This document shows, in pieces, positions 1 through 47,457 of a DNA stretch of 47,457 bases. A model generated the notes under the pieces. The model was not told the origin of the DNA. It saw only the letters and a list, made by a program, of their open reading frames with translations, and searched no databases. Every line of letters starts with the position of its first letter. The first letter of the stretch is position 1. A program made the translations under genes and the position numbers. Origin of the DNA: a virus; the IMG/VR virus record IMGVR_UViG_3300002460_000007. One strand, 5' to 3'.

Positions 1-43
1 ACAATCGCCACACCAAGAGGCGCTGCTAGTACACTCACCACAA
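1..43. repeat. Terminal identity, left copy: identical to 47415-47457
   Basis: Direct comparison of both ends: acaatcgccacaccaagaggcgctgctagtacactcaccacaa. The identity ends at 43 nt. Confidence 0.9.
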
Positions 44-100
44 CGTCTGCATGAGTGGCAGCAATCAGTACAGGTGCCACAATCGCCACACCAAGAGGCG
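1..100 (-). repeat. 78-bp coding tandem repeat: full unit 1-78 plus a partial diverging unit from 79
   Basis: 1-23 equals 79-101. The unit encodes a 26-aa Cys ladder, CGDCGTCTDCCHSCRRCGECTSSASW, on the minus strand. Confidence 0.85.
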
Positions 101-624
101 CAGCTAGAACAACTCCGAACTCCACAGTCCCCGCAAACCGAAAACCCCCTCACGAACTCATTGCAGTCTGAACACCAATGGTCGCACCCCTCACACTCAC
201 ACTCCGCACAATTTGGACACCTATTAGTATCTTCCTTGCATTCCTCACACTCTAATTGCAGTTTCCACAGGAATCTTTGCACAGCCGATAATAGGTCAAA
301 AGTCTCCCCAGTAGATTGTGCTACCTTTTCGGCAGTTTGGTAATGCTTCGCACACCAATACAAGCCCTCGATACTTCTCGTTCCCTCAAATAGACAGATT
401 ACACAAGACAGAGAATGGGCAGAGACAAGGGCATCATGCATTTGTACCATATACATAAATGGTGCATCCGCATATCCTAATGTTCCTGCTAATCTGATTA
501 TTTCGTTGTAGCAGTCCTTACAGAGATAAACATCCTCCTTGTATTGTTTTATGTTACGCGGTTCTGAAAGAGTCCAAGTAACAACAGCAACACCATGTCC
601 AAAGATGCATTGAGGTGCGTTCAT
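1..624 (-). CDS. N-terminal part (208 codons) of a junction-spanning Cys-ladder protein of about 456 aa; continues at 47414 down to 46668
   Basis: ATG at 624-622 with aggag upstream. I translated all 208 codons on the minus strand with no stop down to base 1 (MNAPQCIFGHGVAVV...CHSCRRCGECTSSASWCGDC). It is absent from the ORF track because it runs off the window. Confidence 0.8.
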   Translation of the reverse strand, partial: MNAPQCIFGHGVAVVTWTLSEPRNIKQYKEDVYLCKDCYNEIIRLAGTLGYADAPFMYMVQMHDALVSAHSLSCVICLFEGTRSIEGLYWCAKHYQTAEKVAQSTGETFDLLSAVQRFLWKLQLECEECKEDTNRCPNCAECECEGCDHWCSDCNEFVRGFSVCGDCGVRSCSSCASWCGDCGTCTDCCHSCRRCGECTSSASWCGDC

Positions 625-627
625 GCT

Positions 628-726
628 TTACTCCTGTTGGTCTATCTCTTTCACGGCGGCGATAGCGGCGCGGTTGTCTATGCATTGGCCCCAAGAATCT
701 GTAAAGCATACGTCACATATCATCAT
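628..726 (-). CDS. Small early protein, 32 aa (MMICDVCFTDSWGQCID...)
   Basis: ATGATG preceded by gaggag. Its stop lies 4 nt before the next ATG (624). Below the track size cut-off. Confidence 0.45.
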   Translation of the reverse strand: MMICDVCFTDSWGQCIDNRAAIAAVKEIDQQE

Positions 727-955: not shown

Positions 956-984
956 ATTATCGCACACTCCGAGAATCGTGTCAA
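956..984 (-). promoter_or_regulatory. Sigma70-type promoter: ggggTTGACA-17-tgcGATAAT
   Basis: Read on the minus strand. The -35 is at 979-984 and the -10 at 956-961, with an extended TG. It is intergenic. Confidence 0.6.
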
Positions 985-3358: not shown

Positions 3359-3387
3359 TTGACAAAGGTGCGCGGATATGTTATAAT
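3359..3387 (+). promoter_or_regulatory. Consensus promoter: TTGACA-17-tgtTATAAT
   Basis: Perfect hexamers and extended -10. Confidence 0.8.
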
Positions 3388-3397
3388 GTAGGCAAAG

Positions 3398-3616
3398 ATG
3401 AGTAATGTTATGGAGGAGGGAAAGATGCAGTCAATGAGCGGGAGCAATTCGTCCTTTGTCTTGTGTACTTATTGTAATAGGTATCCGTGCTCTTGTTACA
3501 TTAATTATAGACCTTTTGCCTGTGAGCACTGTTACTGCAGTGAATACTCCAATGACCATCTACAGTGTTGTAAGTGTTATACAACTATGCACAAGAAGTT
3601 CGTTGAGAAGATGTAA
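3398..3616 (+). CDS. Small Cys-rich protein; alternative start ATG 3425 after ggaggaggg
   Basis: 12 Cys in the last 63 aa (CTYCNRYPCSCY...CEHCYCSE...CCKCY). It has its own promoter. Confidence 0.6.
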   Translation: MSNVMEEGKMQSMSGSNSSFVLCTYCNRYPCSCYINYRPFACEHCYCSEYSNDHLQCCKCYTTMHKKFVEKM

Positions 3617-3637: not shown

Positions 3638-3666
3638 TTGACAAACTCTTTCAAATGGTGTATAAT
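3638..3666 (+). promoter_or_regulatory. Consensus promoter: TTGACA-17-TATAAT, head of the structural arm
   Basis: Perfect hexamers. Confidence 0.8.
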
Positions 3667-5885: not shown

Positions 5886-6046
5886 TCATAGCTTTCTATA
5901 CGTACAAGTGTGACCGCGACGGCACGGAATGGGATGAAATTAGACTAATGCAGCACCGCGATGTCCCTGTTGGGTGCCCCACTTGCAGCAAAGAGGACAA
6001 AGTGCACCGTGTACTGACCACTCCGGCGCTGATAAAGGTCAACTAA
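5867..6046 (+). CDS. FmdB/CxxC-type zinc-ribbon protein, 59 aa
   Basis: MVRRAVVIAFYTYKCDRDG...VGCPTCSKEDKVHRV. Ends in TAATG coupled to the portal ATG. One residue below the track cut-off. Confidence 0.55.
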   Translation: MVRRAVVIAFYTYKCDRDGTEWDEIRLMQHRDVPVGCPTCSKEDKVHRVLTTPALIKVN

Positions 6047-7914
6047 TGACTATGAACCTACCAAAGCCCACGGCTGAGACCGTGCAAGAGCTTCACGACA
6101 AACTTATCACAGATTGGTCGCCCACTATCGCGGAAAATGAGGTTATTCGTGACCTTGTACACCGCCGAAACAAGATTGAAGTCTTGGAGGATGACCCTGA
6201 CCGCAATATCCAGCCCTTCGAGGTACATTCAGGACGCGCTGGGGGTATCATAGAGCATGCCGCCGGTCTTGTCATGGCAATGCCATCGTGGTCTATGGAA
6301 CCACTGACTCCAAAGACAGACGACAAGGCATTGGCTGAAGCAACCGAGCTTGTTGCTGCCAAGGTGTTTGAGCAGCAGCTTCTACGTACTGATTTTTGGC
6401 CGAGTATAGCCAAAGATGTACTAATCTATGGTCGTGCCTTCCTCAAGGCACTTCCACTCCCCTCAGTCTGGACAGCCCAAGCTGGCTATCCAGTCAGAAA
6501 GGCTCGGCAATCCCCAGAGGATTACCTAGAGGTTATTAAGAAGTGGAAGTCGTCTGAGGCCAAGTTCCCCTTCGTCATGCAACACATACCAACCATGAGT
6601 ATTCTGCCTCTTCTCGATGCAGAGGACAACACAATCGCCACTATTGAAGAGAAGAGGGTTGTCGCGGGTATCCTTGCCGACAAGAATGGAATGAACTCTT
6701 CTGATATTAAGGGTCTCATGGCCTCTGGTGCTCTTAAATGGTTTGATGAAGTAAGTGTTGTTGAGTACACGGACTACAATTATGTACAGTATTACCTAGT
6801 CAATACCTCTCCTGAGCAGGCACACGTTCAACTCCCCATCACCGCAACCCCAAAGGGTGACTACAAACTACTCAAATCGTGGCAGCATGGTCTAGGTAAA
6901 TGTCCCGTTGTCATGTTCCCAGGGATTAAAACGGAGATGCGGGATTACACAGATAGGTACAAAAGCTTTTTGGCCGACGCTCACGAGGCTTTAGAGGTTT
7001 ACGACCTACTCATCTCTCGTCTGGCAACTATGGTAGGAGCCTATTACCTACCCTCATATGAACTGAAGCTGCCTGAGTCTGGAGTAGCGCAGGGTGGAAA
7101 GACTCGCCCCAAGTTCCAAGTCAGGCTTGGGGGCGTTACAGCAACCTACTCAGACGAACTATTGCAAATGCTTCCATACCCACAGGGTCTCTTCGATGCT
7201 GAAAAGCTTATCACAGAGGTAGATGACCTTATTCAGCGCCATACCCTTGAGGATGTACTGTTCGGGCGTGTTCAGGGTTCGGCACCCGCGTTCCAAGTCA
7301 ACCTACGAATCAACGTCGCACGTTCCAAATTGACTCCCATCTCCCAGCACATGGCCCAAGGCATCACAAATGTTATGGACTTGTTCTTCCGTGGAGTTGA
7401 ACAGCTTGGTGAGAGTATTGTTGTAGACGGACATGAATGTACTGTGGCAATGGCTAAGGCTGCCCGTGGGCGCATGAACGCAAGTATTGAACCCAAGGGG
7501 CCGGTTGACCGTGCTCAGGACATTGGCACGGCCAATATGTTCCTCCAGTTCGGGATGCCGTGGGATTGGATTGTTGAGAATATCCTTGACGTGGAGAACC
7601 CAGCCATGCTGCGGATGGAGAAGCTAGTTGGTGAACTAGAGAAGCTGCCCCCTGTACAGGCCAAGATGATGCAAGAGGTGTTAGACGAATTCGACCTTCT
7701 TGAGAATGTTAATGAGTTTACAGACATGAGCGCTCTACAAAGTGCTCTACCACCTGAACTCCAAGACATGCTTGGCGGAATGATGGGCTTGGGCAATGGG
7801 CCATTCCCCACAGGCGGCGCTCCTCAATCAATACAGGGCGGGAGAGGGCTAACGACACAGAAGGAGCAACCAATGCCAGGGACTCCCCAAATAGGAACAG
7901 GACTGGTGCAGTAA
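6046..7914 (+). CDS. Portal protein candidate (track ORF 5974-7914 trimmed to ATG 6046)
   Basis: 622 aa, immediately downstream of terL. TAATG coupling at both ends. No motif verified. Confidence 0.7.
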   Translation: MTMNLPKPTAETVQELHDKLITDWSPTIAENEVIRDLVHRRNKIEVLEDDPDRNIQPFEVHSGRAGGIIEHAAGLVMAMPSWSMEPLTPKTDDKALAEATELVAAKVFEQQLLRTDFWPSIAKDVLIYGRAFLKALPLPSVWTAQAGYPVRKARQSPEDYLEVIKKWKSSEAKFPFVMQHIPTMSILPLLDAEDNTIATIEEKRVVAGILADKNGMNSSDIKGLMASGALKWFDEVSVVEYTDYNYVQYYLVNTSPEQAHVQLPITATPKGDYKLLKSWQHGLGKCPVVMFPGIKTEMRDYTDRYKSFLADAHEALEVYDLLISRLATMVGAYYLPSYELKLPESGVAQGGKTRPKFQVRLGGVTATYSDELLQMLPYPQGLFDAEKLITEVDDLIQRHTLEDVLFGRVQGSAPAFQVNLRINVARSKLTPISQHMAQGITNVMDLFFRGVEQLGESIVVDGHECTVAMAKAARGRMNASIEPKGPVDRAQDIGTANMFLQFGMPWDWIVENILDVENPAMLRMEKLVGELEKLPPVQAKMMQEVLDEFDLLENVNEFTDMSALQSALPPELQDMLGGMMGLGNGPFPTGGAPQSIQGGRGLTTQKEQPMPGTPQIGTGLVQ

Positions 7915-8204
7915 TGGACAAAGTAACAATGCTAGAAGAAGCCCCCAAGTTGGCTGCTGAACGTATCTACAAGCAGAAACAGGAGTTGCGGAAGGCAATG
8001 GGGGTCAAACCCTTTGGTGGTGAGGATATGACCGAGGATGAGGCATTCAATGAATACCTGGCCCTTCGTATAAACCCAGCAGCCTTTCAGAAGATGCTCC
8101 AAGATAACATGAAGATGGGCAGGGATGGTCGTTCGCTCATCAGGAAAGAAGTAGTTGAGGCTATCATAAAGATGGAGACAAAGATAAAGGAAGGACAGAG
8201 ATAA
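7914..8204 (+). CDS. Head-module hypothetical protein, 96 aa
   Basis: TAATG coupling at both ends. Confidence 0.6.
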   Translation: MDKVTMLEEAPKLAAERIYKQKQELRKAMGVKPFGGEDMTEDEAFNEYLALRINPAAFQKMLQDNMKMGRDGRSLIRKEVVEAIIKMETKIKEGQR

Positions 8205-8995
8205 TGGTATTAACTCCTGACCTATTTCTGGCCCAACAGGGTCTTGATATATGGGGAAAGCCTAAGACTGGAACAACAACACCTACTGGTGGTATTCCGC
8301 CAGAGTTGATGGCGTTATTTCAGTCATTCCTACAGGGGCAAGCGAGTGGTGGAGGCGGTGGAGGCGCTGCCCCAACTCCTTACACTCAAACTCAAGCAGG
8401 AGCACAATTTGCTGCAGGAGAACAGCTAAAGCAAATCCAGCTACAGGGAGCCGAACAGCTAAAGCAAATCCAGCTTCAGCAGAAACTCCAGTTCGACGCC
8501 GATTATGCCCTCGCTCAACTACAAGGTGCAAATGCTAAAGAACTTGAGCAGATGAGACAGGCATTTGCGGAGAAGCAGAAGTTGCAGGAGTTGGAATTTG
8601 GGCGACAACAGATGTTTGCTCAAATGCTAGGTACTGACCCTGTGCGTGCAGTCCTTCTTGCAACGGGCATGGGAGGACAAGCTCTAGGTGGAGTTGGTGG
8701 TGAGTTCAAGGCCCTACCAGCTATGCAGGGTGCTCAACAGTTTGAGCAGAGTACAGAGCAGGCATTGAGGGGGATAACAGGCGGAAATATTGACATTACG
8801 GGACAGGGTGTCCTAGGACTGCCCAGTGTTTACCAGACTGCTCGACAAGCCCAGCAGGGCGGAGATGCAGTGACCACACTCCTTCGTTCAGCTTTCGGGG
8901 TAGGCAACGAGGCACTAGGTGGTGGAGTTAGTGCTGAAGAGTTTGGCAAGAGAATACAGTCCGTCACTCCGACAGGTGTGTTTGGTGGTCGTTAG
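8204..8995 (+). CDS. Gly/Gln-rich head-module protein with an internal 33-nt duplication
   Basis: GEQLKQIQLQ occurs twice (8420-8479). The sequence is low complexity. Confidence 0.6.
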   Translation: MVLTPDLFLAQQGLDIWGKPKTGTTTPTGGIPPELMALFQSFLQGQASGGGGGGAAPTPYTQTQAGAQFAAGEQLKQIQLQGAEQLKQIQLQQKLQFDADYALAQLQGANAKELEQMRQAFAEKQKLQELEFGRQQMFAQMLGTDPVRAVLLATGMGGQALGGVGGEFKALPAMQGAQQFEQSTEQALRGITGGNIDITGQGVLGLPSVYQTARQAQQGGDAVTTLLRSAFGVGNEALGGGVSAEEFGKRIQSVTPTGVFGGR

Positions 8996-9003
8996 ACAAT
9001 TTC

Positions 9004-9039
9004 GGGGGCCGTCGAGCTTTCTCTCCGGCTCCGGCCCCC
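9004..9039 (+). other. GC-rich stem-loop: GGGGGCCG...CGGCCCCC
   Basis: Perfect 8-bp outer stem plus a gagc/gctc inner stem. No U tract. It ends 10 nt before ATG 9050. Confidence 0.6.
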
Positions 9040-9049
9040 ACTTCCCATA

Positions 9050-12000
9050 ATGTTACCTGGTTTCGCATCCAAGAAGAAACGAGCAAAGCAGCTTCAGACT
9101 GAGGCTGCCATGCGTACATTTAGGCAGGTTGAGCAACAGACTCAGCCCCGCCGTCTTGTTCCCTTTTCCACCCGCACTGCTGCTGGAACTCCCTTTGACC
9201 TTTCATTTCAGCGAGAAGACCCTGACTATGCCCGTGAGGGGATAGAGAGACTCAAGAAACTGCGGGAACACGCTACACTATCAGTACAAGGAAAAGTACC
9301 ACCAGACCTAGAGACTCCTGAACAACGCACTCAGCACTTTATCCTCAACTATGCGGGCATCCGTGCCCGACAGGGATTGGACTTTGATAGTGCTATTGAT
9401 GAGGCAGTACAAAACGCTGTAGCCCACGGTATACCTGAAAAGTATGCTAGGGATGAAGCTGAAAGGAATAGAGGATTCTGGAGTAAGCTTGGCGGTGCTC
9501 TTCTCAAAGAGGGAGACTTCATTGCCGATGTAGCAATTAGGGACACTGTGCACGATATTGAGAGTGCTTTCAATAGGACTCGTCGCTTCAAGGGTGTCCT
9601 ACCACTCCTAAAAGGTGAGGAGCCCTTTATGACAGAGAGGGAGGCTGAGGAGCACTTTGGCCCTTCTCTGGATATAAGCAGAGAATTGCAGGCTCGCCTT
9701 GATGCTGCTGATGAGGCTAAAGTTCTTTCTCGCCCAGTGGTTCTAGGAGCACAAGAGGCGTTAGCCCGAACTCTGGAGGGACGAGGGGGTAGGGAGAATG
9801 TCTTATCACGCGCAGTACGAAGCCGTGCAGTCACAGAAGTTGGGGCTGAGTTACTTAATCCGATTTATCTTGTATCCGCTTTGCCTTTCCTAAGTCTACG
9901 ACCAGGAGTTTCCGGTGCTAGAGCAACAGCGGATGTAATATCACAACTTGTTGCTACTGGATTAGAGCCTGGTGCAGCCGTTGGCTTCTACAAAGGTTTC
10001 CGCGCTATTGGCAAAGGCACTCTTCGGGCAACGCTTCGTGGTCTTGCTAAGGGCACTGTTCAAACCCTTGAGAAAGAACGAGGCACGCGACTAGCTGCGG
10101 GAATCTTAGGGGAAGCTGACCCGAAAGCACAGGGATTGGCCTTCTCTCGATGGGTTATGAACGAGGATGACCCGTATGAGGCTGGAGTCAAGTGGGCCAG
10201 AGCCACCAACTCAGGCGTGGAAACTGCCGTTACCAATGTCGAAGACCTTGCTGCGCGTCAACGCACTCTGACAGACCTTATTCAAGAGAAGGAAATCAAC
10301 CCCCTCACTGGCCGTCCTACTCAGGAACCTCCTACTATTAAGTCTCCCATGAGAGTACAGATTGAGGACGAGATAAAGGCAGGTAAAACTGCCGAGGAGC
10401 TTCTGGACGAAACGACAGCACGTATTGCTGAGAGTCCTAGGCTTGCTGGTGAAGAGGTCGGAGATGTCTCTGATTCACTTTCTAAAGCTGGAATTCCTGA
10501 AGATGTAGCTAGGCTTCTCACTGACCCTGAGAATCTTTATCCCAAGGGAACACAAGTCTCAATCACTAAAGGCCCACTTAGTGGACAAACTGGTAAAATC
10601 ACTAGCTACACCAAGGTCACAAACTCTTACAAGATTCGAGTAGGTAAGAAGACAACTGACCTTCAGGCTAAGTTCTTCGATGCTATTGAGGATATAGAAC
10701 AACAAGCTGGTAAGATTACCTCTGAGGTGGACGATATTGGTGTTCACACTAACATCAGTTCTATCCTTGATGAATCTGACAATGCTGCCCGTGCCCAACG
10801 CTCTGCCGACCTAGGTGCCGACGAAGTTACAGGAGAGCCTGTCCGCCCATCGTCTGACCCCGCGATTCCTCATCCTGACAAGATTCCCGATAAGGTGATG
10901 ACTAAAGAGGCGCGGGAAGCGATGTACCGTGTCATTGATAAGATACGCCGCACTCAATCGTGGACAGCCGTTGTCCAGAGCGCGATGGAACACGAGATGC
11001 GGGCGCTAGATGTAGATTTGGAAACAGGACTAATCCGAACTGCCACCCCAAAGGATGGAGTATCTAGCACACACTGGGCCGAAGTCTTGTCTGACCCCGA
11101 CAAGTATGATTTTGTTGGGGCTGAGGCTTCGGACATTGAAAAAGCTATACGGAGCTACAACCTATTCACCTTTCAATCCGTCGAGGACGGAGTAAGGGCT
11201 GGTATATTTGATGATGCCTTCTTAAATTTCATCAAACCTGATGGCAAGCGATACGTCCACCGCGTGGCTATCTCTATCGAACAGGATGGGGAAGTCATCG
11301 AGCTTCGCCGTTCCTCTCGTCATGGCCCTCTTGGGCAGAAACAGTCTCACCAAATGCCTCGCACAAGGGAGACTATCGACGAGGCAGGGAGACCGGAAGT
11401 TGTCTATCTAAATAATCCATCTGCGGCCCTAGCAGAATTCATTGAAGAGGTAAACTATCGAATAGCTGTCAAGGAACTAGCCAACGACCTAGAGAAGTAC
11501 GCGGTCACTCCCCACGCACAGCAAGCAACCCGTGTGGCTTATGATGAGGCACGAGAGAAGGCACAGAGTCTCTCCACACAGTTAGAGGACTTGACCCGAA
11601 CTCGTCTGGTTATGCTTGATGAGGAACGTTTAGCTGAGGCAGCGGGTGAGGTAAAGAATGCTGAACGTCTGCGAAGCAATCTTACAGCTATTGAACTAGA
11701 CCTTGACCAAACCAACAAGGAGCTAAAGACTGCCCGCTCTCAGGCCAAGCGACTGCAAAAGACAGTTGCTTACGAGAAAAAGACTTTCCGTTCTATCAAC
11801 ATAGAGCTACAAGGAATCCGTGAGCCGTTTGCTGGAGGCAAGCTCTACCCTAAGTCTGTAGCAGATACAGTTGAACGAACTCTCCGCCTAAACCACCGTG
11901 GTATTGTCTATGGCACAGCTGTCAAGGGCCTTGAGCTTCTGCGGGAAGTCAACAAAGTATTCAAGCCTGTCTGGGCTAGCGCGGACATGTCATTCATCGG

Positions 12001-14080
12001 GCTACAGACCTTGCCCTCTCTTGCTGTCAATCCTGTTGCTTTCGCAGATATGATGAAAGTCACATTCTCCAGTGCAGTCGATGGAGACGTGTACAATGCT
12101 TGGGTTCACTCGCACTTACCTCTTCTACAGGATATGATTGACGATGGTGTTCCCATGTTGGGCACCGAACTCAGCGCAACAGACCTACTAAACCGTATCG
12201 AGAAGACTGCCGGAAAATGGAGCACTAAGTACACCCCACTGTGGTTTATGAAGGGTGGAAACCATATGTGGAATAGGGCGGTGAACATGATTGGTGCTTC
12301 TCTATATGAGCAGAATCGTGCTCTTATGGAAGAGGTTGGTCACAGCAACTATCTACATCTTGCCCAGAAAGCATTTGGCCCCAATATCGTTGGCAAGGAC
12401 ATAACCTCTGCCAGACGTGCTTTGGCCGATGTTGTGTCGCACGGTACTGGACGACTCTCGGCCAATGACCTCATGCACCGTGGCCCAGGAATGAGGCTTC
12501 TATCTGACTCTATTCTATTCGCCGGACAATACTTTGAGTCGTACTTACGGCTCATTATGGACGCACGGCGATTAGGAATTCGTGGCAATCTTGGGCGTCG
12601 TCTCCTAGCAGGATGGGCAACTACAGCTATTGGTGGTTATGTTGCTCTATCTTATATACTAGGACAGGAACCAAAACTAGACCCCACGAAGTATGGCTCC
12701 CAGATTCTTACTGTGCGTTTGGGAAATCAGAACGTGGGATTTGGTGGTGTATTGCAGCAGCTTATGCTCTATGGGGGCAGACTGTCAGAAGCAAAAAGTC
12801 CTCAAGATGTTTTTGATATTACTGAGAGGTTCGTCCGCAGCAAGCAATCTCCGGCCCTATCCTTTGCCTCAGACCTATTCATCAATCGTGCGGATTACAT
12901 AGGGCGCAAGCTTGACACTCGTAATTCCATCCTTGCATATTTAGCCAGTCGTTTTGTCCCCTTTGTGGGCCAAGATATGCTTCGGGAAACGCTAGCAAGG
13001 GGACTATCTGGAGATTGGAGACTCCCAGAGGAATTGAATCCTACCAATGTAATAGGGACACTTCTCGGAGGTCGGTCGTTCCCTGTCTCCAAGAAGACCC
13101 TCCGTAATGAAATCGGAGTGGAAGAGTATCGTCTAAATAATCCACAATCCAAGGAGACTGACGAGTATATTGTAGACAACTACATAAATCCCCAAGTCTT
13201 CATGAGTGACCCTGAGAACTATCCGCGTACTATGAAGGCACAAGAAGAGGTAGATGCGTGGCAGCGAGAGACTGGTTCAAAGTGGCAGGAATATTCTGAT
13301 AAGCGACAGAGTTATAATGATAATCAATTCCAGAAGGATATTGAAGATGGGGCTAAGGAAATTCAATGGGGTCGCGCTGGCGGAGGGGTAACATTTCGAG
13401 AGGATGTACTGCCAGAAGCCTATGCTGGAAAGAACTCATATAACGACCAGACACTTCTAGACCTTGGGCTCAATCCAGATGACTTGCCCGAAGTACAGGG
13501 GAACGACATCAAACTTCTGCGAGACTATCATGCACTGAATTATGATAGTTATAAGGCAGCGGATGGAATTACTCCCGACCCAGAGGGGTACAAAGCTGCT
13601 CAACAGAGTATCCTGAACCAGATGTCCCCTGCTATGAGAGGCTTCATTGAGTCTGGCAAGGATGGTAGGATTACGTCAAGGAAGGGTAAAGACGCAAATA
13701 CTCGCCTAATTTCTACTCGTACTGACCTTCGACGGTGGTTTGATGCTCCGAAATATAAGGGACTCACTGGAGACGAAAGTAAACAGGTTGACCAACTCCT
13801 TGAGTGGGCCTCTACTCTACACGACATGGCAACTCTATCCGGTGTATCCATCGACCGCCGAAAGATTATAGCAATGATGGGGTCTATTCCTCAATATTCT
13901 AAGCTTGCTGCTGTCGCCTTCTTCGCTACCTTCGAGGGTCTGAAGAGTATGGTTCTCAGCGATGAGCAGGAAAAGATAACGATGTCCAACGGGGATTTGG
14001 CAGTTTTCTACCCATTCACCTACGAAGATTTATCTGACGAACTCAAGGTAGACTGGGCAAAACTGTATGGAATGAGATAA
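9050..14080 (+). CDS. Giant virion-associated protein, 1,676 aa (polyvalent or internal-protein type)
   Basis: Uninterrupted ORF between the portal and scaffold genes. KOW/SH3-like GTQVSITKGPLSGQTGKITSY, long coiled coil and hydrophobic segments. No recognisable SD. Confidence 0.6.
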   Translation: MLPGFASKKKRAKQLQTEAAMRTFRQVEQQTQPRRLVPFSTRTAAGTPFDLSFQREDPDYAREGIERLKKLREHATLSVQGKVPPDLETPEQRTQHFILNYAGIRARQGLDFDSAIDEAVQNAVAHGIPEKYARDEAERNRGFWSKLGGALLKEGDFIADVAIRDTVHDIESAFNRTRRFKGVLPLLKGEEPFMTEREAEEHFGPSLDISRELQARLDAADEAKVLSRPVVLGAQEALARTLEGRGGRENVLSRAVRSRAVTEVGAELLNPIYLVSALPFLSLRPGVSGARATADVISQLVATGLEPGAAVGFYKGFRAIGKGTLRATLRGLAKGTVQTLEKERGTRLAAGILGEADPKAQGLAFSRWVMNEDDPYEAGVKWARATNSGVETAVTNVEDLAARQRTLTDLIQEKEINPLTGRPTQEPPTIKSPMRVQIEDEIKAGKTAEELLDETTARIAESPRLAGEEVGDVSDSLSKAGIPEDVARLLTDPENLYPKGTQVSITKGPLSGQTGKITSYTKVTNSYKIRVGKKTTDLQAKFFDAIEDIEQQAGKITSEVDDIGVHTNISSILDESDNAARAQRSADLGADEVTGEPVRPSSDPAIPHPDKIPDKVMTKEAREAMYRVIDKIRRTQSWTAVVQSAMEHEMRALDVDLETGLIRTATPKDGVSSTHWAEVLSDPDKYDFVGAEASDIEKAIRSYNLFTFQSVEDGVRAGIFDDAFLNFIKPDGKRYVHRVAISIEQDGEVIELRRSSRHGPLGQKQSHQMPRTRETIDEAGRPEVVYLNNPSAALAEFIEEVNYRIAVKELANDLEKYAVTPHAQQATRVAYDEAREKAQSLSTQLEDLTRTRLVMLDEERLAEAAGEVKNAERLRSNLTAIELDLDQTNKELKTARSQAKRLQKTVAYEKKTFRSINIELQGIREPFAGGKLYPKSVADTVERTLRLNHRGIVYGTAVKGLELLREVNKVFKPVWASADMSFIGLQTLPSLAVNPVAFADMMKVTFSSAVDGDVYNAWVHSHLPLLQDMIDDGVPMLGTELSATDLLNRIEKTAGKWSTKYTPLWFMKGGNHMWNRAVNMIGASLYEQNRALMEEVGHSNYLHLAQKAFGPNIVGKDITSARRALADVVSHGTGRLSANDLMHRGPGMRLLSDSILFAGQYFESYLRLIMDARRLGIRGNLGRRLLAGWATTAIGGYVALSYILGQEPKLDPTKYGSQILTVRLGNQNVGFGGVLQQLMLYGGRLSEAKSPQDVFDITERFVRSKQSPALSFASDLFINRADYIGRKLDTRNSILAYLASRFVPFVGQDMLRETLARGLSGDWRLPEELNPTNVIGTLLGGRSFPVSKKTLRNEIGVEEYRLNNPQSKETDEYIVDNYINPQVFMSDPENYPRTMKAQEEVDAWQRETGSKWQEYSDKRQSYNDNQFQKDIEDGAKEIQWGRAGGGVTFREDVLPEAYAGKNSYNDQTLLDLGLNPDDLPEVQGNDIKLLRDYHALNYDSYKAADGITPDPEGYKAAQQSILNQMSPAMRGFIESGKDGRITSRKGKDANTRLISTRTDLRRWFDAPKYKGLTGDESKQVDQLLEWASTLHDMATLSGVSIDRRKIIAMMGSIPQYSKLAAVAFFATFEGLKSMVLSDEQEKITMSNGDLAVFYPFTYEDLSDELKVDWAKLYGMR

Positions 14081-30182: not shown

Positions 30183-30353
30183 CTAAGCACGGTAGATTAC
30201 CTTAAAATACCCCCCGCCCGTGCTCTCCAAAGCTTCTTCTCTCTCCTTCTTTTCCAAATAGTGCTCGCAGAACTTAATGTGCCGTTTGTTTCGTCTCTGA
30301 CAAGGCAAGATATGGCCGTTGTAGTTTGTCCCTTTATGTCTTTTCCACTGCAT
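30183..30353 (-). CDS. Small basic protein, 56 aa (track ORF trimmed)
   Basis: TAATG coupling to the nrdJ stop. Confidence 0.45.
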   Translation of the reverse strand: MQWKRHKGTNYNGHILPCQRRNKRHIKFCEHYLEKKEREEALESTGGGYFKVIYRA

Positions 30354-31927
30354 TAAGAACAACCTCCTCCACAATCAGGACACATAAAGCATGTACCGTC
30401 AGGCACCGACTCACTATGGTTACAAGCGGAGATAGACTCATCTACCTTGGCCCGAAGAACCTGCTTCTCCCTACACCCATCACGGAACACTGTGACACCC
30501 TTGCAGCCTCTTGCCCATGCACGCTTATACGAGTTTAGTACATCATCTACTGTCGCAGCGTTGGGCATATTGATAGTCTTCGATACGGACTGGTCAACAT
30601 GCTTTTGAAAGATAGCTTGGTGTTCTAGGTGCCACTTCCAATCTATCTCATGCGCTGTCTTAGGTCGAAACTCCGAGAATTTCAGTGTTGGGTTAATCTG
30701 CTCGTGCAACTGTGTACCGTCACCCATAGTCCGAACCCAAGAGTCAGAGAAATGTGGCTCAATCCCTGCGGAGCAACCAGCAAGCAGCGAGATGCTGCCA
30801 GTTGGTGCAATAGCTGTCCTACACGCATTACGATAAAGAGTCCTCGTCTCCCCTTTGTAAGCAGGGGCAGGGCCCCGAACTCTGGCAAGACTAGCACTCG
30901 TTGAATCAGCCACCTTCTGTACTGTTGACATAACCTTACCCGCCAAGTCCAAAGCAGTCTGACTATCATACGGTATTCTCAACTGCGCCAACATATCGGC
31001 CCAACCCATCACACCAAGGCCGAGCTTCCTAGTCAGACGCACAGCCTCGGTTATATCTTCGTGAGGGAACTGGTTATGCTCAAGTATGTCATCGAGGAAC
31101 TGAATAGCCGTGGCAACCGTGGCCTGTAGTTCAGTAAACTTGACACGACCATCATCAGCAAACTTGGACAAGTTTATACTGCCCAAGTTACACGCCTCAT
31201 TGTCCAGAAGGGGAATCTCACCGCACGGGTTAGTGCCTGTAAGTTTGCCCAACCACGGCGTAGGATTATCTCTTTCCGCAGCATCAATGAAATAACACCC
31301 TGGGTCTCCAGTTGCCCACGCTACCTCGGCCATAAGACCAAGTAACTTCTCGGCCTGTGTGCCCCCCACCATCACCTCTTCCATGAACTTGTCTGTTAGT
31401 GCAACAGAAACATTGAAAGTCCGAAGACCATCGGGATTCACGGCCTTCATAGTGATAAACTCTTCAACATCAGGATGGTCACAGGATATGATAGCCATCT
31501 GTGCGGCCTCTCGCTTGCCCGACTGGGTGACAACTTCGCCCAACGAGTTGAACATCCTGATAAATCCCACAGGGCCACCAGCGGTATTACCCGTGCCCAA
31601 CACTGGGGCACCCTTGCCTCGCACTTCGGACAACACATACCCCACACCCCCTCCCCATTTCTGCACCAGCGCAGCTTTCTTTGCCACGTCCATGATACCA
31701 ATCATGTCATCAGGAACGTCGAACTTGAAACAAGCGGACAGTGTACCTCTGCCTGTACCAGCATTGAAAAGGGTTGGACTGTTAGGGAGAAATTCTAAGT
31801 CTCGCATCATGCGATAGTAACTTGGATTGCCGAAGCTGACTCGTTGCAGCATCTCATCGGGTGTCTCTCTCTCCATGAGATACCGTTTTTGGAGCACTAG
31901 CAAAGCATTGCCGTTGAAGTTGGACAC
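30353..31927 (-). CDS. nrdJ: Class II (adenosylcobalamin-type) ribonucleotide reductase
   Basis: Active-site NPCGEIPL and an N-terminal LQKRYL. The C-terminal Cys tail is CFMCPDCGGGCS. Confidence 0.85.
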   Translation of the reverse strand: MSNFNGNALLVLQKRYLMERETPDEMLQRVSFGNPSYYRMMRDLEFLPNSPTLFNAGTGRGTLSACFKFDVPDDMIGIMDVAKKAALVQKWGGGVGYVLSEVRGKGAPVLGTGNTAGGPVGFIRMFNSLGEVVTQSGKREAAQMAIISCDHPDVEEFITMKAVNPDGLRTFNVSVALTDKFMEEVMVGGTQAEKLLGLMAEVAWATGDPGCYFIDAAERDNPTPWLGKLTGTNPCGEIPLLDNEACNLGSINLSKFADDGRVKFTELQATVATAIQFLDDILEHNQFPHEDITEAVRLTRKLGLGVMGWADMLAQLRIPYDSQTALDLAGKVMSTVQKVADSTSASLARVRGPAPAYKGETRTLYRNACRTAIAPTGSISLLAGCSAGIEPHFSDSWVRTMGDGTQLHEQINPTLKFSEFRPKTAHEIDWKWHLEHQAIFQKHVDQSVSKTINMPNAATVDDVLNSYKRAWARGCKGVTVFRDGCREKQVLRAKVDESISACNHSESVPDGTCFMCPDCGGGCS

Positions 31928-33197: not shown

Positions 33198-33941
33198 CTA
33201 GTATACCCTCAACGGCGTCGCGCCAAGATTCCTGAACTTCACCAGATACTCGAATATCCGCTCAAGCTCCTCCACATCCTTCTGGCAGTGGTCAACAATA
33301 TATTTCATGGCCGTGCTATTGCCCTTCATTGCAGCGTTCCACACAGAGCCGATAAGACGCGTCTTGTTTGATTCACCCAGGAGTGTTTCTCCGACGGCCT
33401 GTTGACGGTTGCTATGCATAGCCAGTTGGCTCCGTGCCGTATAGTACAAGTCCACATGTCGAATGTGAGATAATGGCGCGTGACCTGATACGAGCAGTCT
33501 TGTTTGCAGAAAGGGCAAATCAAAGCCAGTTCCATACCATGTGATGATGTAGTCATATTTCATCAACTCCTCACGGATTCTGTCCGCCACTGTTCCGTCC
33601 CCTTGTCGTCCCGCAACGAATGTCTTTGTGTTTCCACCGACATTCTTAACACATCCGCAAAGAATTTCTCCGATACTCGCGTTGAGGTTGGAAGTCTCAA
33701 GGTCAAAAGTAGCGAAAGATTTGTTCTCCAATATCCACGCGTTTTTCGCCTTGTTCTCCTCTGCACGGAGCAGCTTCTTTGTCTCCTGTGCCTGCCATGT
33801 CTGCTCATCATATAGTGGTTCCTCTGTCACTGCCTGTCGGCGTACATTCTCCATGTGCCGCTTGCATTTCTGCGAACAGTAGGTTTGGTTGTGTACTTGA
33901 GGCTCAAACGCAACCGAGCACTCATTACTTTGACAAATCAT
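33198..33941 (-). CDS. DEDDh 3'-5' exonuclease (RNase H-like fold) with an N-terminal zinc ribbon
   Basis: ExoI FDLETSNL, ExoII WYGTGFDLPFL and ExoIII HCQKDVEEL. Confidence 0.7.
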   Translation of the reverse strand: MICQSNECSVAFEPQVHNQTYCSQKCKRHMENVRRQAVTEEPLYDEQTWQAQETKKLLRAEENKAKNAWILENKSFATFDLETSNLNASIGEILCGCVKNVGGNTKTFVAGRQGDGTVADRIREELMKYDYIITWYGTGFDLPFLQTRLLVSGHAPLSHIRHVDLYYTARSQLAMHSNRQQAVGETLLGESNKTRLIGSVWNAAMKGNSTAMKYIVDHCQKDVEELERIFEYLVKFRNLGATPLRVY

Positions 33942-34527
33942 GCAGTTCCTCCGCGACCTTCAACGCCCGCTCCAAATTAAACACTCGATGTAGACCTGGC
34001 TGCTTAGGGAGATGGACGTTGTATTGGTACGTTGGCATCACAACCTGGATACCGCTGTCCAATAACTCCTGTGCGTACTTCGGGCTGTCATCTATCATCA
34101 CGTTAATCTTCAGCAGCTTGCAGTGTTCGGATTTCTCTTCACCCTTCTTCACCCGTATGATGAAAGCATTGGGCATCCCATAGTTCTCCAACCACTGATG
34201 AGTCTGCTTGGCAGAATTGCCGCCGTCTCTCCTCGTGATGAACACGATAGGGTGCTTGTTGTATATCTCTCGTAGATAATCCATGTTGTACAGGGGCTCA
34301 ACACCTAGCCAAAAATTGCCATTGTCCAGTGTGAGTATGGACTTCCACGTTGCCTCTATTATCCCACTATGTGCGTACCACTCATCCCACTTCCACGATT
34401 CCACATCCATGTAATCGACAATCGGTGCCTCATCGGGGAATAATCTATTTGCGCGGGTGGAGAACGCCTTGACAAAGTTACAAACTACTCCGTCCATGTC
34501 GCAGCCTATGATACTCAAGGCTTCCAC
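33925..34527 (-). CDS. HAD-family 5'(3')-deoxyribonucleotidase
   Basis: Motif I CDMDGVVCNF, plus VFITRR and VMIDDSPKY. Confidence 0.7.
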   Translation of the reverse strand: MEALSIIGCDMDGVVCNFVKAFSTRANRLFPDEAPIVDYMDVESWKWDEWYAHSGIIEATWKSILTLDNGNFWLGVEPLYNMDYLREIYNKHPIVFITRRDGGNSAKQTHQWLENYGMPNAFIIRVKKGEEKSEHCKLLKINVMIDDSPKYAQELLDSGIQVVMPTYQYNVHLPKQPGLHRVFNLERALKVAEELHDLSK

Positions 34528-46667: not shown

Positions 46668-47457
46668 CTATCTAAACGTGTGGGAACCAAACTGTTTCCA
46701 CGCATGATAACGCTTAGTGTGTGGTTCTTCTTCCGGCAGATGCTTCTCAACGTACTCTATTCTACCCTCCAAGTTGGCATCGAGTATATCTTTGAGCCCA
46801 TACGTCGTCCACAGTTTGTTGAATATGCAGCCGTTGTTATGCTCCAGTCCGAAAGCGGTATCAACAAATGTGACCACACTAATCTCACCCTCCTCGAACT
46901 GCCTGAGTGTGGCCGCCACTTGTGCCCAAGCATGACCACCTACTGACCTTCCCCACTTGCCTTCTTCTAGAGCGTACTCCGCCTCTCTAAGAATGTCAGT
47001 GCCATACTCATCGCGCAGGGTTTTCCACTCTGCCCACGCCTTGCCTCGATTGATGTTACCATACTTACGATACCTTTTGTGTATTCTAGGCATCAGTCTC
47101 TTAGCCTCACCATCACCAATCGTCTCCGACCCATACCTAATCTCCCCACCAACAGCCATGTCTAGATAAGGAGCAAAGACTTCGGCCAGTTCCTTCGCGT
47201 AGTTCTCAAACTCTTGCTTGTAGCTTGGGTCACGCTCGGCCATAGTTGCTAGAGTATAGAATGTGGCCGCCGCTTGGTGTAGCTTAAACACAATGGGCAA
47301 CCCCCAATCTCCTACAGCCACATCAGATTCGGAATCGTGCCCGCAGTCACATTCACCGCTGCTAGTACACTCACCACAACGTCTGCATGAGTGGCAGCAA
47401 TCAGTACAGGTGCCACAATCGCCACACCAAGAGGCGCTGCTAGTACACTCACCACAA
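46668..47457 (-). CDS. C-terminal part of the junction-spanning Cys-ladder protein (orphan 217-aa domain plus repeat region)
   Basis: The frame is open from 47457 down to the stop at 46668. The track start (GTG 47321) is internal. The frame matches 1-624 after removal of the 43-nt overlap. Confidence 0.75.
   Translation of the reverse strand, partial: CGECTSSASWCGDCGTCTDCCHSCRRCGECTSSGECDCGHDSESDVAVGDWGLPIVFKLHQAAATFYTLATMAERDPSYKQEFENYAKELAEVFAPYLDMAVGGEIRYGSETIGDGEAKRLMPRIHKRYRKYGNINRGKAWAEWKTLRDEYGTDILREAEYALEEGKWGRSVGGHAWAQVAATLRQFEEGEISVVTFVDTAFGLEHNNGCIFNKLWTTYGLKDILDANLEGRIEYVEKHLPEEEPHTKRYHAWKQFGSHTFR
47359..47457 (-). repeat. 78-bp coding tandem repeat, right-end copies
   Basis: 47359-47414 equals unit positions 23-78. 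47415-47457 equals unit positions 1-43. Confidence 0.85.
47415..47457. repeat. Terminal identity, right copy: identical to 1-43
   Basis: Same 43-mer as the window start. It lies inside a coding tandem repeat. Confidence 0.9.

Follow-up and report, generated by a model that had tools for sequence, protein, structure and literature searches.

In the virus record IMGVR_UViG_3300002460_000007 (47,457 nt, analysed here over its whole length and hereafter called the window), a minus-strand gene running across the two ends of the linear sequence was found to encode a 456-aa protein composed of a Cys-rich N-terminal half and of a C-terminal all-helical domain, here termed X. The stretch 624..1 joined to 47414..46668 (minus strand) is one real gene, the genome being circular or circularly permuted, and the X family is genomically locked to a cysteine phosphatase of the dual-specificity/protein tyrosine phosphatase type (DSP/PTP) with an intact CX5R loop. 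An earlier note on this DNA had already described a missed gene coding for a three-part protein; the present analysis supports that reading and adds to it the domain family, the phosphatase and dikinase partners and a tandem repeat at the junction. The main new result is the combination of a predicted helical fold without PDB counterpart, an obligatory cysteine phosphatase and, frequently, a dikinase resembling pyruvate phosphate dikinase (PPDK) but without the pyruvate domain.

The ends of the window are identical over 43 nt and, among overlap lengths from 10 to 399 nt, none but 43 matches. Dropping the duplicated bases, the minus-strand frame runs from position 624 to base 1 and then from 47414 to 46668, and all the elements that had been claimed for it, namely the 43-nt overlap, the ATG at 624 with an upstream AGGAG and the stop at 46668, were verified in the sequence (Table 1). 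Such a run of 456 codons without a stop has a probability of approximately 3e-10 by chance. The ORF 46668–47321 (217 aa, GTG start) present in the track of open reading frames (ORFs) starts at the first in-frame start codon past the window edge and is therefore a truncation artefact representing the C-terminal half alone, as the earlier note had maintained. That the gene was missed is a common artefact of linearising a circular sequence.

The junction is crossed by a contig from an independent metagenome (JGI 3300025159, Ga0209619_10030458, 3498 bp, here L001), which aligns with the window at 97.9% identity over 3416 bp, without gaps and in frame, from window position 2565 through 1/47414 to 46564, the two ends being thus contiguous in a second assembly. 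The predicted gene of about 456 aa has in this contig a called orthologue of exactly 456 aa (P0001), 97% identical to the window protein at full coverage in a protein search. The two genes differ at 32 nucleotides, affecting 14 codons synonymously and 12 non-synonymously, and L001 therefore represents a distinct genotype rather than the window assembly duplicated.

The two ends meet (gene nt 624/625) within the second copy of a perfect 78-nt (26-codon) tandem repeat, the copies of which (gene nt 524–601 and 602–679) are 100% identical, also in both assemblies, each unit encoding ASWCGDCGTCTDCCHSCRRCGECTSS with 8 Cys. Given identical copies and short-read assemblies, the copy number has to be taken as a lower bound (at least 2); each further copy would add 26 aa, with 8 Cys, and keep the frame, leading to a product of 456 + 26n aa. 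Relatives P0002–P0008 have a single repeat copy, and the duplication is therefore specific to the window lineage. A perfect tandem repeat is also a classic site of assembly errors, so that the 456-aa ORF might derive from a false circularisation through the repeat, fusing two unrelated genes. We attach next to no probability to this explanation, and an assembly chimera was rejected, because L001, with its own nucleotide differences, passes through the junction and because eight distant relatives (P0002–P0008 and P0013) show the same order, a Cys-rich region and then X, in a single polypeptide.

The three-part anatomy that had been proposed for the protein is correct, with an N-terminal CxxC/CxxH region of about 120 aa, a central Cys ladder and a C-terminal domain beginning near the boundary defined by the GTG. 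Six of the 38 Cys lie in residues 1–124, one in the C-terminal domain and 31 in residues 125–233 (Cys126–Cys232), the last figure agreeing with the count previously given for a ladder of about 108 residues. In the N-terminal region, two hairpin-plus-helix modules (C6/H9...C35/C38 and C74/C77...C91/H94) have paired knuckles beside the predicted hairpins, from which we infer two Zn-ribbon-like modules. A full-length AlphaFold model, built on P0001 with 20 sequences, reached a mean predicted local distance difference test score (pLDDT) of 77, with values of 65–86 for residues 1–105, of 40–68 for the ladder (residues 126–232) and high from about residue 236 onward. Among 10 relatives, the Cys columns of the ladder show a conservation of 90% or more.

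With about 29% Cys in residues 126–232 (31 in 107 residues), a tandem duplication that adds exactly 8 Cys and CX2CX2CX3C spacings such as C179-C182-C185-C189 (with no Pro after them), the ladder could be regarded as the functional essence of the protein, either metal-sequestering and metallothionein-like or acting as an Fe-S redox protein, for which the C-terminal domain would serve as a mere scaffold. We consider this very improbable, since the ladder occurs in only a small part of the family, the total in many X proteins being 1–7 Cys, whereas the element that is conserved, in 2073 representatives, is the X domain. Moreover, no Pfam match to Fer4 or metallothionein was obtained. Metallothioneins are small proteins (under 10 kDa) with about 30% Cys and free of aromatic residues; the Cys density of the ladder is similar, but Trp occurs in it and it belongs to a multidomain protein of 456 aa, so that a metallothionein identity was rejected. 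A DnaJ-type CxxCxGxG domain was likewise rejected.

The C-terminal 217 aa had been left without a family in the earlier note, and the curated libraries give no assignment either: the X domain showed no match in Pfam, NCBIfam or PADLOC, and nothing below E=0.28 was retrieved by a PDB sequence profile search. In PHROGs, the window X matches phrog_20946 (function not assigned) at 1.6e-13, over the region of the HNxG motif, and the window protein is an unusual, Cys-laddered member of this uncharacterised family. Modelling and structural comparison of the C-terminal domain, which the earlier note had suggested, gave a confident all-helical fold without a PDB analogue. In particular, AlphaFold modelled the C-terminal 225 aa alone (107 sequences) with a pLDDT of 94.9, a predicted template modelling score (pTM) of 0.91, twelve helices and no strands. 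Foldseek against PDB returned for the X domain model a best E=1.7 with TM-scores of about 0.2, and nothing below E=0.85 for the domain and full-length models; in BFVD, only four viral entries were found at E<0.5, all nameless in the lookup table.

The extent of the family was assessed by an exhaustive HMMER search, using a profile of the window domain and 7 relatives and counting cluster representatives. The profile matched 2073 of them at E≤1e-3, 682 at E≤1e-10 and 109 at E≤1e-30, and a further search with a diverse X profile retrieved 26 proteins, all without a name or a Pfam domain. X is a large, uncharacterised and widespread phage family, its confidently predicted fold lacking a PDB counterpart. 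The core that is conserved across the whole family starts at about residue 245 of the window protein. In alignments of 107 and 20 sequences (residue numbering of the 225-aa fragment), Y30, G66, G67, E68, R70, R100, W107, G136, G137, W140, F160, D162, H169, N170 and K177 are invariant at about 30% identity; the motifs GGExR[HY] and HNxGxxFNK, which read GGEIRY and HNNGCIFNK in the window X, are invariant (A3, A4, A6) together with R100, D162 and three Trp. This pattern of invariant charged and polar residues suggests a ligand-binding or active site.

The gene of the phosphatase partner begins 8 nt after the X stop codon. Its product matches Tc-R-P (2.5e-6), PTP-SAK and Y_phosphatase in Pfam, and small PTPs (1.6e-5) and DUSP23 among PDB sequences; the N-terminus bears a Cys ladder of its own, CDLCLCHDCGRCDLCCTC, with several Zn-ribbon pairs, and a Lys-rich stretch is found at the C-terminal side. 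The family of the partner, phrog_17568, is labelled 'thymidylate synthase' in PHROGs, a label that looks like a mis-annotation. To survey the conservation of the pairing, 48 IMG/VR loci were collected, and all loci were scanned with hidden Markov models (HMMs) built from cultured-phage proteins; in 42 loci, X is flanked on either side by 1.5 kb or more. A PTP-like gene was present in 41 of these 42, within 1.2 kb of X in 40, adjacent to it in 32 and downstream of it in 35, and the single exception is a locus that stops 1.6 kb past X in an arrangement where the PTP usually comes later. The C-x-G-[GAS]-[HFYW]-G-R-T loop (CX5R) was kept in all of the 44 distinct partners. The long phosphatase partners were also searched for extra Pfam domains hinting at the substrate, and none was found.

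The same pairing of X with a PTP was observed in Rhodobacter phage RcZahn, in Vibrio phages VH2_2019 and 1.215.A and in 3 of 5 contigs from metagenome-assembled genomes (MAGs), and two further contigs show the same linkage, including L066, where the pair adjoins RadC and a restriction-modification locus. Across loci, the Cys counts of X and of its partner phosphatase are correlated (rho 0.39, p 0.011, without phylogeny correction), which suggests shared targeting or assembly modules. Paralogues occur on both sides of the pairing, some phages in IMG/VR having two X paralogues around one phosphatase (L006/L039, L007/L043 and L008/L045), and RcZahn and VH2_2019 (L012 and L013) two phosphatase paralogues around one X. 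In an Actinomycetota MAG contig of 335 kb (L064, positions 6041–10686), X is followed by a PPDK-like ORF of about 800 aa, with no phosphatase match in the locus; here a cyclophilin domain shares the stop-to-stop segment of X, and the locus could represent either a prophage or a form of the module belonging to cells.

Dikinase parts, that is a PPDK-type ATP-grasp and a phospho-histidine swivel with no pyruvate domain, were detected in 30 of the 42 loci. They take the form of proteins of 500–730 aa, of a stand-alone swivel of about 105 aa with a mini ATP-grasp of about 270 aa, of a mini ATP-grasp and a swivel joined in one protein of about 355 aa, or of a fusion with X itself (L033). The T[CS]H motif, searched as a pattern, was kept in 23 of the 28 swivel-domain matches. 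A Pfam scan of 107 X members revealed PPDK_N together with the PEP-utilisers mobile domain (PEP, phosphoenolpyruvate) in two of them, P0076 and P0139. Other N-terminal fusions include a helix-turn-helix (HTH), the L7/L12 C-terminal domain and an SH3-like domain. In NCBIfam, P0076 and P0139 align to the pyruvate phosphate dikinase model only up to position 520–527 of 865 approximately, X beginning about 40 residues after the end of the match, and in the L033 fusion the match likewise extends to about 520 of 865 with X after it. In these proteins X therefore replaces the PEP/pyruvate TIM barrel.

In RcZahn, VH2_2019 and 1.215.A the genes are organised as a cassette with a 'PPDK', one or two small ORFs, a PTP and X, followed in RcZahn and VH2_2019 by a second PTP. 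The 'PPDK' proteins of the latter two phages consist of ATP-grasp (PPDK_N) and swivel/mobile domains only. The C-terminal tails of the cultured-phage PPDK-like proteins were considered as divergent X domains and rejected (hhalign probability <1%). A CsrA-like ORF lies within the Vibrio phage cassette.

In the circularised window, a search of all stop-to-stop segments of at least 30 aa (hmmsearch --max) retrieved neither a PPDK-like protein or mini ATP-grasp (best E=0.25) nor a swivel domain (best E=1.1), the swivel being present in the closest IMG/VR relative (L002/L015). Having no swivel or ATP-grasp gene, the window therefore represents the minimal form with X and phosphatase, like about 30% of the loci. 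Additional small, lineage-specific proteins accompany the module in the L020–L040 group: a protein of about 228 aa between the swivel gene and X (e.g. L021, 6159–6842), with an HNATH motif and a C-terminal Zn ribbon, belonging to phrog_6361 (function not assigned) and without Pfam match, and a Zn-ribbon protein of about 160 aa after the phosphatase (e.g. L030, 8486–8971), also without Pfam match.

Taken together, the best explanation is that of a real gene whose X domain would act as the catalytic subunit, substrate-binding or phosphoryl-accepting, of a phage phosphotransfer module, a mechanism to which, judging from sequence and genome context, we give about an even chance of being correct. 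In such a mechanism, the invariant Glu, two Arg, Asp, His-Asn and Lys of X would make up the binding site of a phosphorylated ligand. The phosphorylated swivel histidine (His~P) of a dikinase would load this site in those phages that have one, and the partner phosphatase would act on the same substrate as X or on X itself. The window phage would possess only the minimal pair of X and phosphatase. The Cys-rich half would consist of metal-binding modules, probably Zn(Cys)4 sites, two of which may have been added by the 26-aa duplication, and these modules might target or assemble the pair, because the partner phosphatase in the window lineage has a similar ladder. As for the substrate, the leading guess would be a nucleic acid or a nucleotide, on account of the predicted co-transcription with helicase, PolA, NT5C and ribonucleotide reductase (RNR) genes; the operon genes, together with the HTH, L7/L12 and SH3-like fusions and the CsrA-like ORF, are weak hints in the same direction.

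Several considerations weigh against this mechanism. The window X must act without a phage dikinase, which weakens the role of His~P acceptor for the window protein, and a dikinase and a phosphatase working on one substrate would establish a futile cycle unless their steps differ. The fusions with HTH, L7/L12 C-terminal and SH3-like domains fit binding or targeting as well as catalysis. Near-duplicate lineages are present among the loci, so that fewer independent observations underlie the adjacency figures than the counts suggest. Finally, the ladder is modelled at low confidence, and Zn and Fe-S are indistinguishable from sequence.

The tight co-location of X with a phosphoryl donor and a phosphatase, its position directly after the swivel domain in the fused proteins and its invariant His would also be expected from a non-enzymatic phospho-carrier or switch, like HPr or HPt, which the swivel His~P would phosphorylate (e.g. 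at His169) and the DSP would reset. The phosphorylation state would then set what the variable N-terminal modules bind, and these modules (HTH, Zn-ribbons, L7/L12 C-terminal domain) do resemble output or targeting domains; furthermore, enzyme I of the phosphotransferase system (PTS), a PPDK relative, phosphorylates a small carrier protein. We regard this alternative as unlikely. Fourteen invariant positions, Glu, two Arg, Asp, Asn and Lys included, exceed the needs of a simple phospho-acceptor, known carriers are far smaller than 200 aa, Foldseek shows no likeness to the HPr or HPt folds, and a dikinase is lacking in the window phage and in about 30% of the loci.

A role in counter-defence was also weighed, with X binding a phosphorylated immune signal or protein of the host, the phosphatase destroying it and the dikinase, as an add-on, regenerating or modifying a metabolite. 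The early-gene position and style, the restriction of the module to phages, the vicinity of the L066 pair to RadC and restriction-modification genes and the placement of the partner in DSP clades (PTP-SAK, Tc-R-P, PTP-NADK) that, according to Pfam, come from conflict or nucleotide-centred systems would all be in accordance with this role. Nevertheless, no PADLOC model matches X or the phosphatase, the literature searched contains no paper tying the module to defence, and no host defence system turned up whose phosphorylated signal would fit. Both in the cultured phages and in the window, the module lies among replication genes and not in a variable accessory region. On this balance, its probability appears to us distinctly low.

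X and the DSP phosphatase, with or without the truncated dikinase, could constitute an undescribed and widespread enzyme system of phages in which X, as a new catalytic fold, would use or generate a phosphorylated intermediate on DNA, RNA or a nucleotide in early infection. This proposal is put forward as a tentative one, which we consider less likely than not. If it were true, it would imply, for example, a new pathway of nucleic-acid modification or end-processing, and phage 'PPDK' genes reported as auxiliary genes of carbon metabolism would be misassigned parts of the X system.

The coordinates of the gene, of its product and of the adjoining elements are collected in Table 1.

Table 1. Features of the X gene and of its surroundings in the window, with the evidence for each.
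Feature	Position (nt)	Strand	Evidence
X gene, 5' part, codons 1–208; ATG at 624–622	1..624	minus	same start called in the orthologous contig L001
X gene, 3' part, codons 209–456 and TAG stop at 46670–46668	46668..47414	minus	join shown by L001
Shine-Dalgarno-like AGGAG, 6-nt spacer to the ATG	631..635	minus	read from sequence
Terminal duplicate of bases 1–43 (assembly overlap of a circular map, to be dropped before joining)	47415..47457		
N-terminal region, residues 1–124, two hairpin-plus-helix repeats (predicted)	253..624	minus	Cys positions and AlphaFold
Cys ladder, part 1, residues 126–208	1..249	minus	
Cys ladder, part 2, residues 209–232	47343..47414	minus	
Repeat copy 1	24..101	minus	encodes ASWCGDCGTCTDCCHSCRRCGECTSS
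Repeat copy 2, distal 55 nt (its first 23 nt are window 23–1)	47360..47414	minus	
X domain, all-helical (predicted), residues 236–456	46671..47333	minus	GGExR[HY] and HNxGxxFNK motifs, profile, AlphaFold
Phosphatase partner gene, 518 aa, DSP/PTP-type domain, CMGGHGRT P-loop	45103..46659	minus	Pfam and PDB sequence matches
Nearest upstream sigma-70-like promoter candidate, 11/12 with TG extension	956..984	minus	consensus scan

The X gene belongs to a minus-strand block that starts at a divergent promoter region at about 3.3–3.7 kb. The earlier note had counted it among the first genes of the leftward early operon, a claim that is partly supported: it does lie in the leftward block, but about six small ORFs precede it and candidate promoters are found nearer to it, a second sigma-70-like site being recorded by consensus scan at 1256–1229 besides that of Table 1. 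Past the phosphatase partner, the operon encodes a DinG-like helicase, a PolA fused to a uracil-DNA glycosylase (UDG) domain, a Rad52-like protein, an NT5C 5'-deoxynucleotidase, an RNase H-like exonuclease and the RNR. The polymerase (39340–41460, minus) is a family-A enzyme of 706 aa, with an N-terminal domain of the uracil-DNA-glycosylase superfamily and a 3'-5' exonuclease, and the same operon contains the NT5C-type 5'-deoxynucleotidase at 33925–34527 and the RNR at 30353–31927. The presence of the PolA/UDG fusion, NT5C and RNR in one operon hints at an unusual handling of pyrimidines.

Two probable homing endonucleases were noted, one just after PolA (38927–39349, minus; LAGLIDADG-like, GYVDGEGCI, no Pfam match) and the other on the opposite strand inside the leftward block (1551–1898, plus; weak HNH match, E 7e-4). 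In the divergent region, two perfect 12/12 sigma-70 consensus sequences (TTGACA-17-TATAAT; 3359–3387 and 3638–3666, plus) point toward the structural genes, with weaker minus-strand sigma-70 matches toward the leftward block; the 12/12 promoters suggest a host with canonical sigma-70 recognition. An 80-aa Cys-rich ORF with a weak LIM/DUF7573 match (2293–2535, minus) and a 72-aa ORF with 13 Cys (3398–3616, plus) were also observed, and Cys-rich early proteins seem to be uncommonly frequent in this phage. In the structural arm, a 1676-aa ORF (9050–14080, plus) has no Pfam match. The phage has no cultured relative: a blastn search with 7.9 kb against 50,697 phage records gave no match, and the best terminase matches are below 30% identity.

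In published vibriophage work, the phage PPDK is read as a glycolytic/carbon-metabolism auxiliary gene, and its comparison with the PPDK structure 1GGO gave complete overlap only in residues 1–527 (PMC12038007). Our literature search, which was incomplete, so that an earlier description is possible, retrieved no paper on a phage module of dikinase, DSP and X, and the papers found all assign the phage PPDK to the auxiliary metabolic genes. From the fusions and the linkage of the genes, we argue that the phage dikinase feeds a different, phage-specific phosphotransfer reaction. The X protein thus anchors a conserved phage module that finds no explanation in the curated libraries or in the literature searched, and its function is directly testable, as the cultured phages VH2_2019, 1.215.A and RcZahn carry the full module. 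On the technical side, ORF callers miss genes where a circular contig has been cut open, a point that here falls in a tandem repeat.

Compared with known systems, the module recalls first the PEP-utilising dikinases (pyruvate phosphate dikinase, PEP synthase, rifampicin phosphotransferase, PigC/RedH), which have an exchangeable third, substrate-specific domain. In P0076, P0139 and L033, X occupies the position of that domain, after ATP-grasp and swivel, and other X relatives are encoded beside a split ATP-grasp and swivel. However, X resembles neither the PEP/pyruvate TIM barrel nor any solved acceptor domain in sequence or fold, and in the window X is unfused and the genome lacks a dikinase. 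A precedent for a PPDK-family dikinase paired with a DSP-type cysteine phosphatase on one substrate class is given by starch and glycogen metabolism, where glucan-water dikinase and the glucan phosphatases SEX4 and laforin work on a non-protein polymer. Unlike this plant/animal system, which has no obligatory third component similar to X, the X module is phage-encoded and located among replication genes, and neither X nor its partner showed a carbohydrate-binding module. In the PTS phosphorelay, the phosphate passes from enzyme I to HPr, then to EIIA and to the Cys of EIIB; similarly, the His~P of a PPDK-family swivel would pass it to a separate small protein and then to a cysteine-dependent one. 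X, on the other hand, has about 200 aa, a predicted all-helical fold and no relation to HPr or EIIA; its cysteine-dependent partner is a phosphatase with a CX5R loop and not an EIIB, and no transporter is present.

The window protein belongs to none of these three systems, and its place is within phrog_20946, the family of its X domain, which includes gp10 of RcZahn (5e-78) and gene 28 of VH2_2019 (1e-72). These two members have the same phosphatase neighbours but 3–5 Cys and no ladder, and match the window X domain at 26–41% identity over partial alignments; their phages differ from that of the window in carrying a dikinase of 685–734 aa and two phosphatase paralogues.

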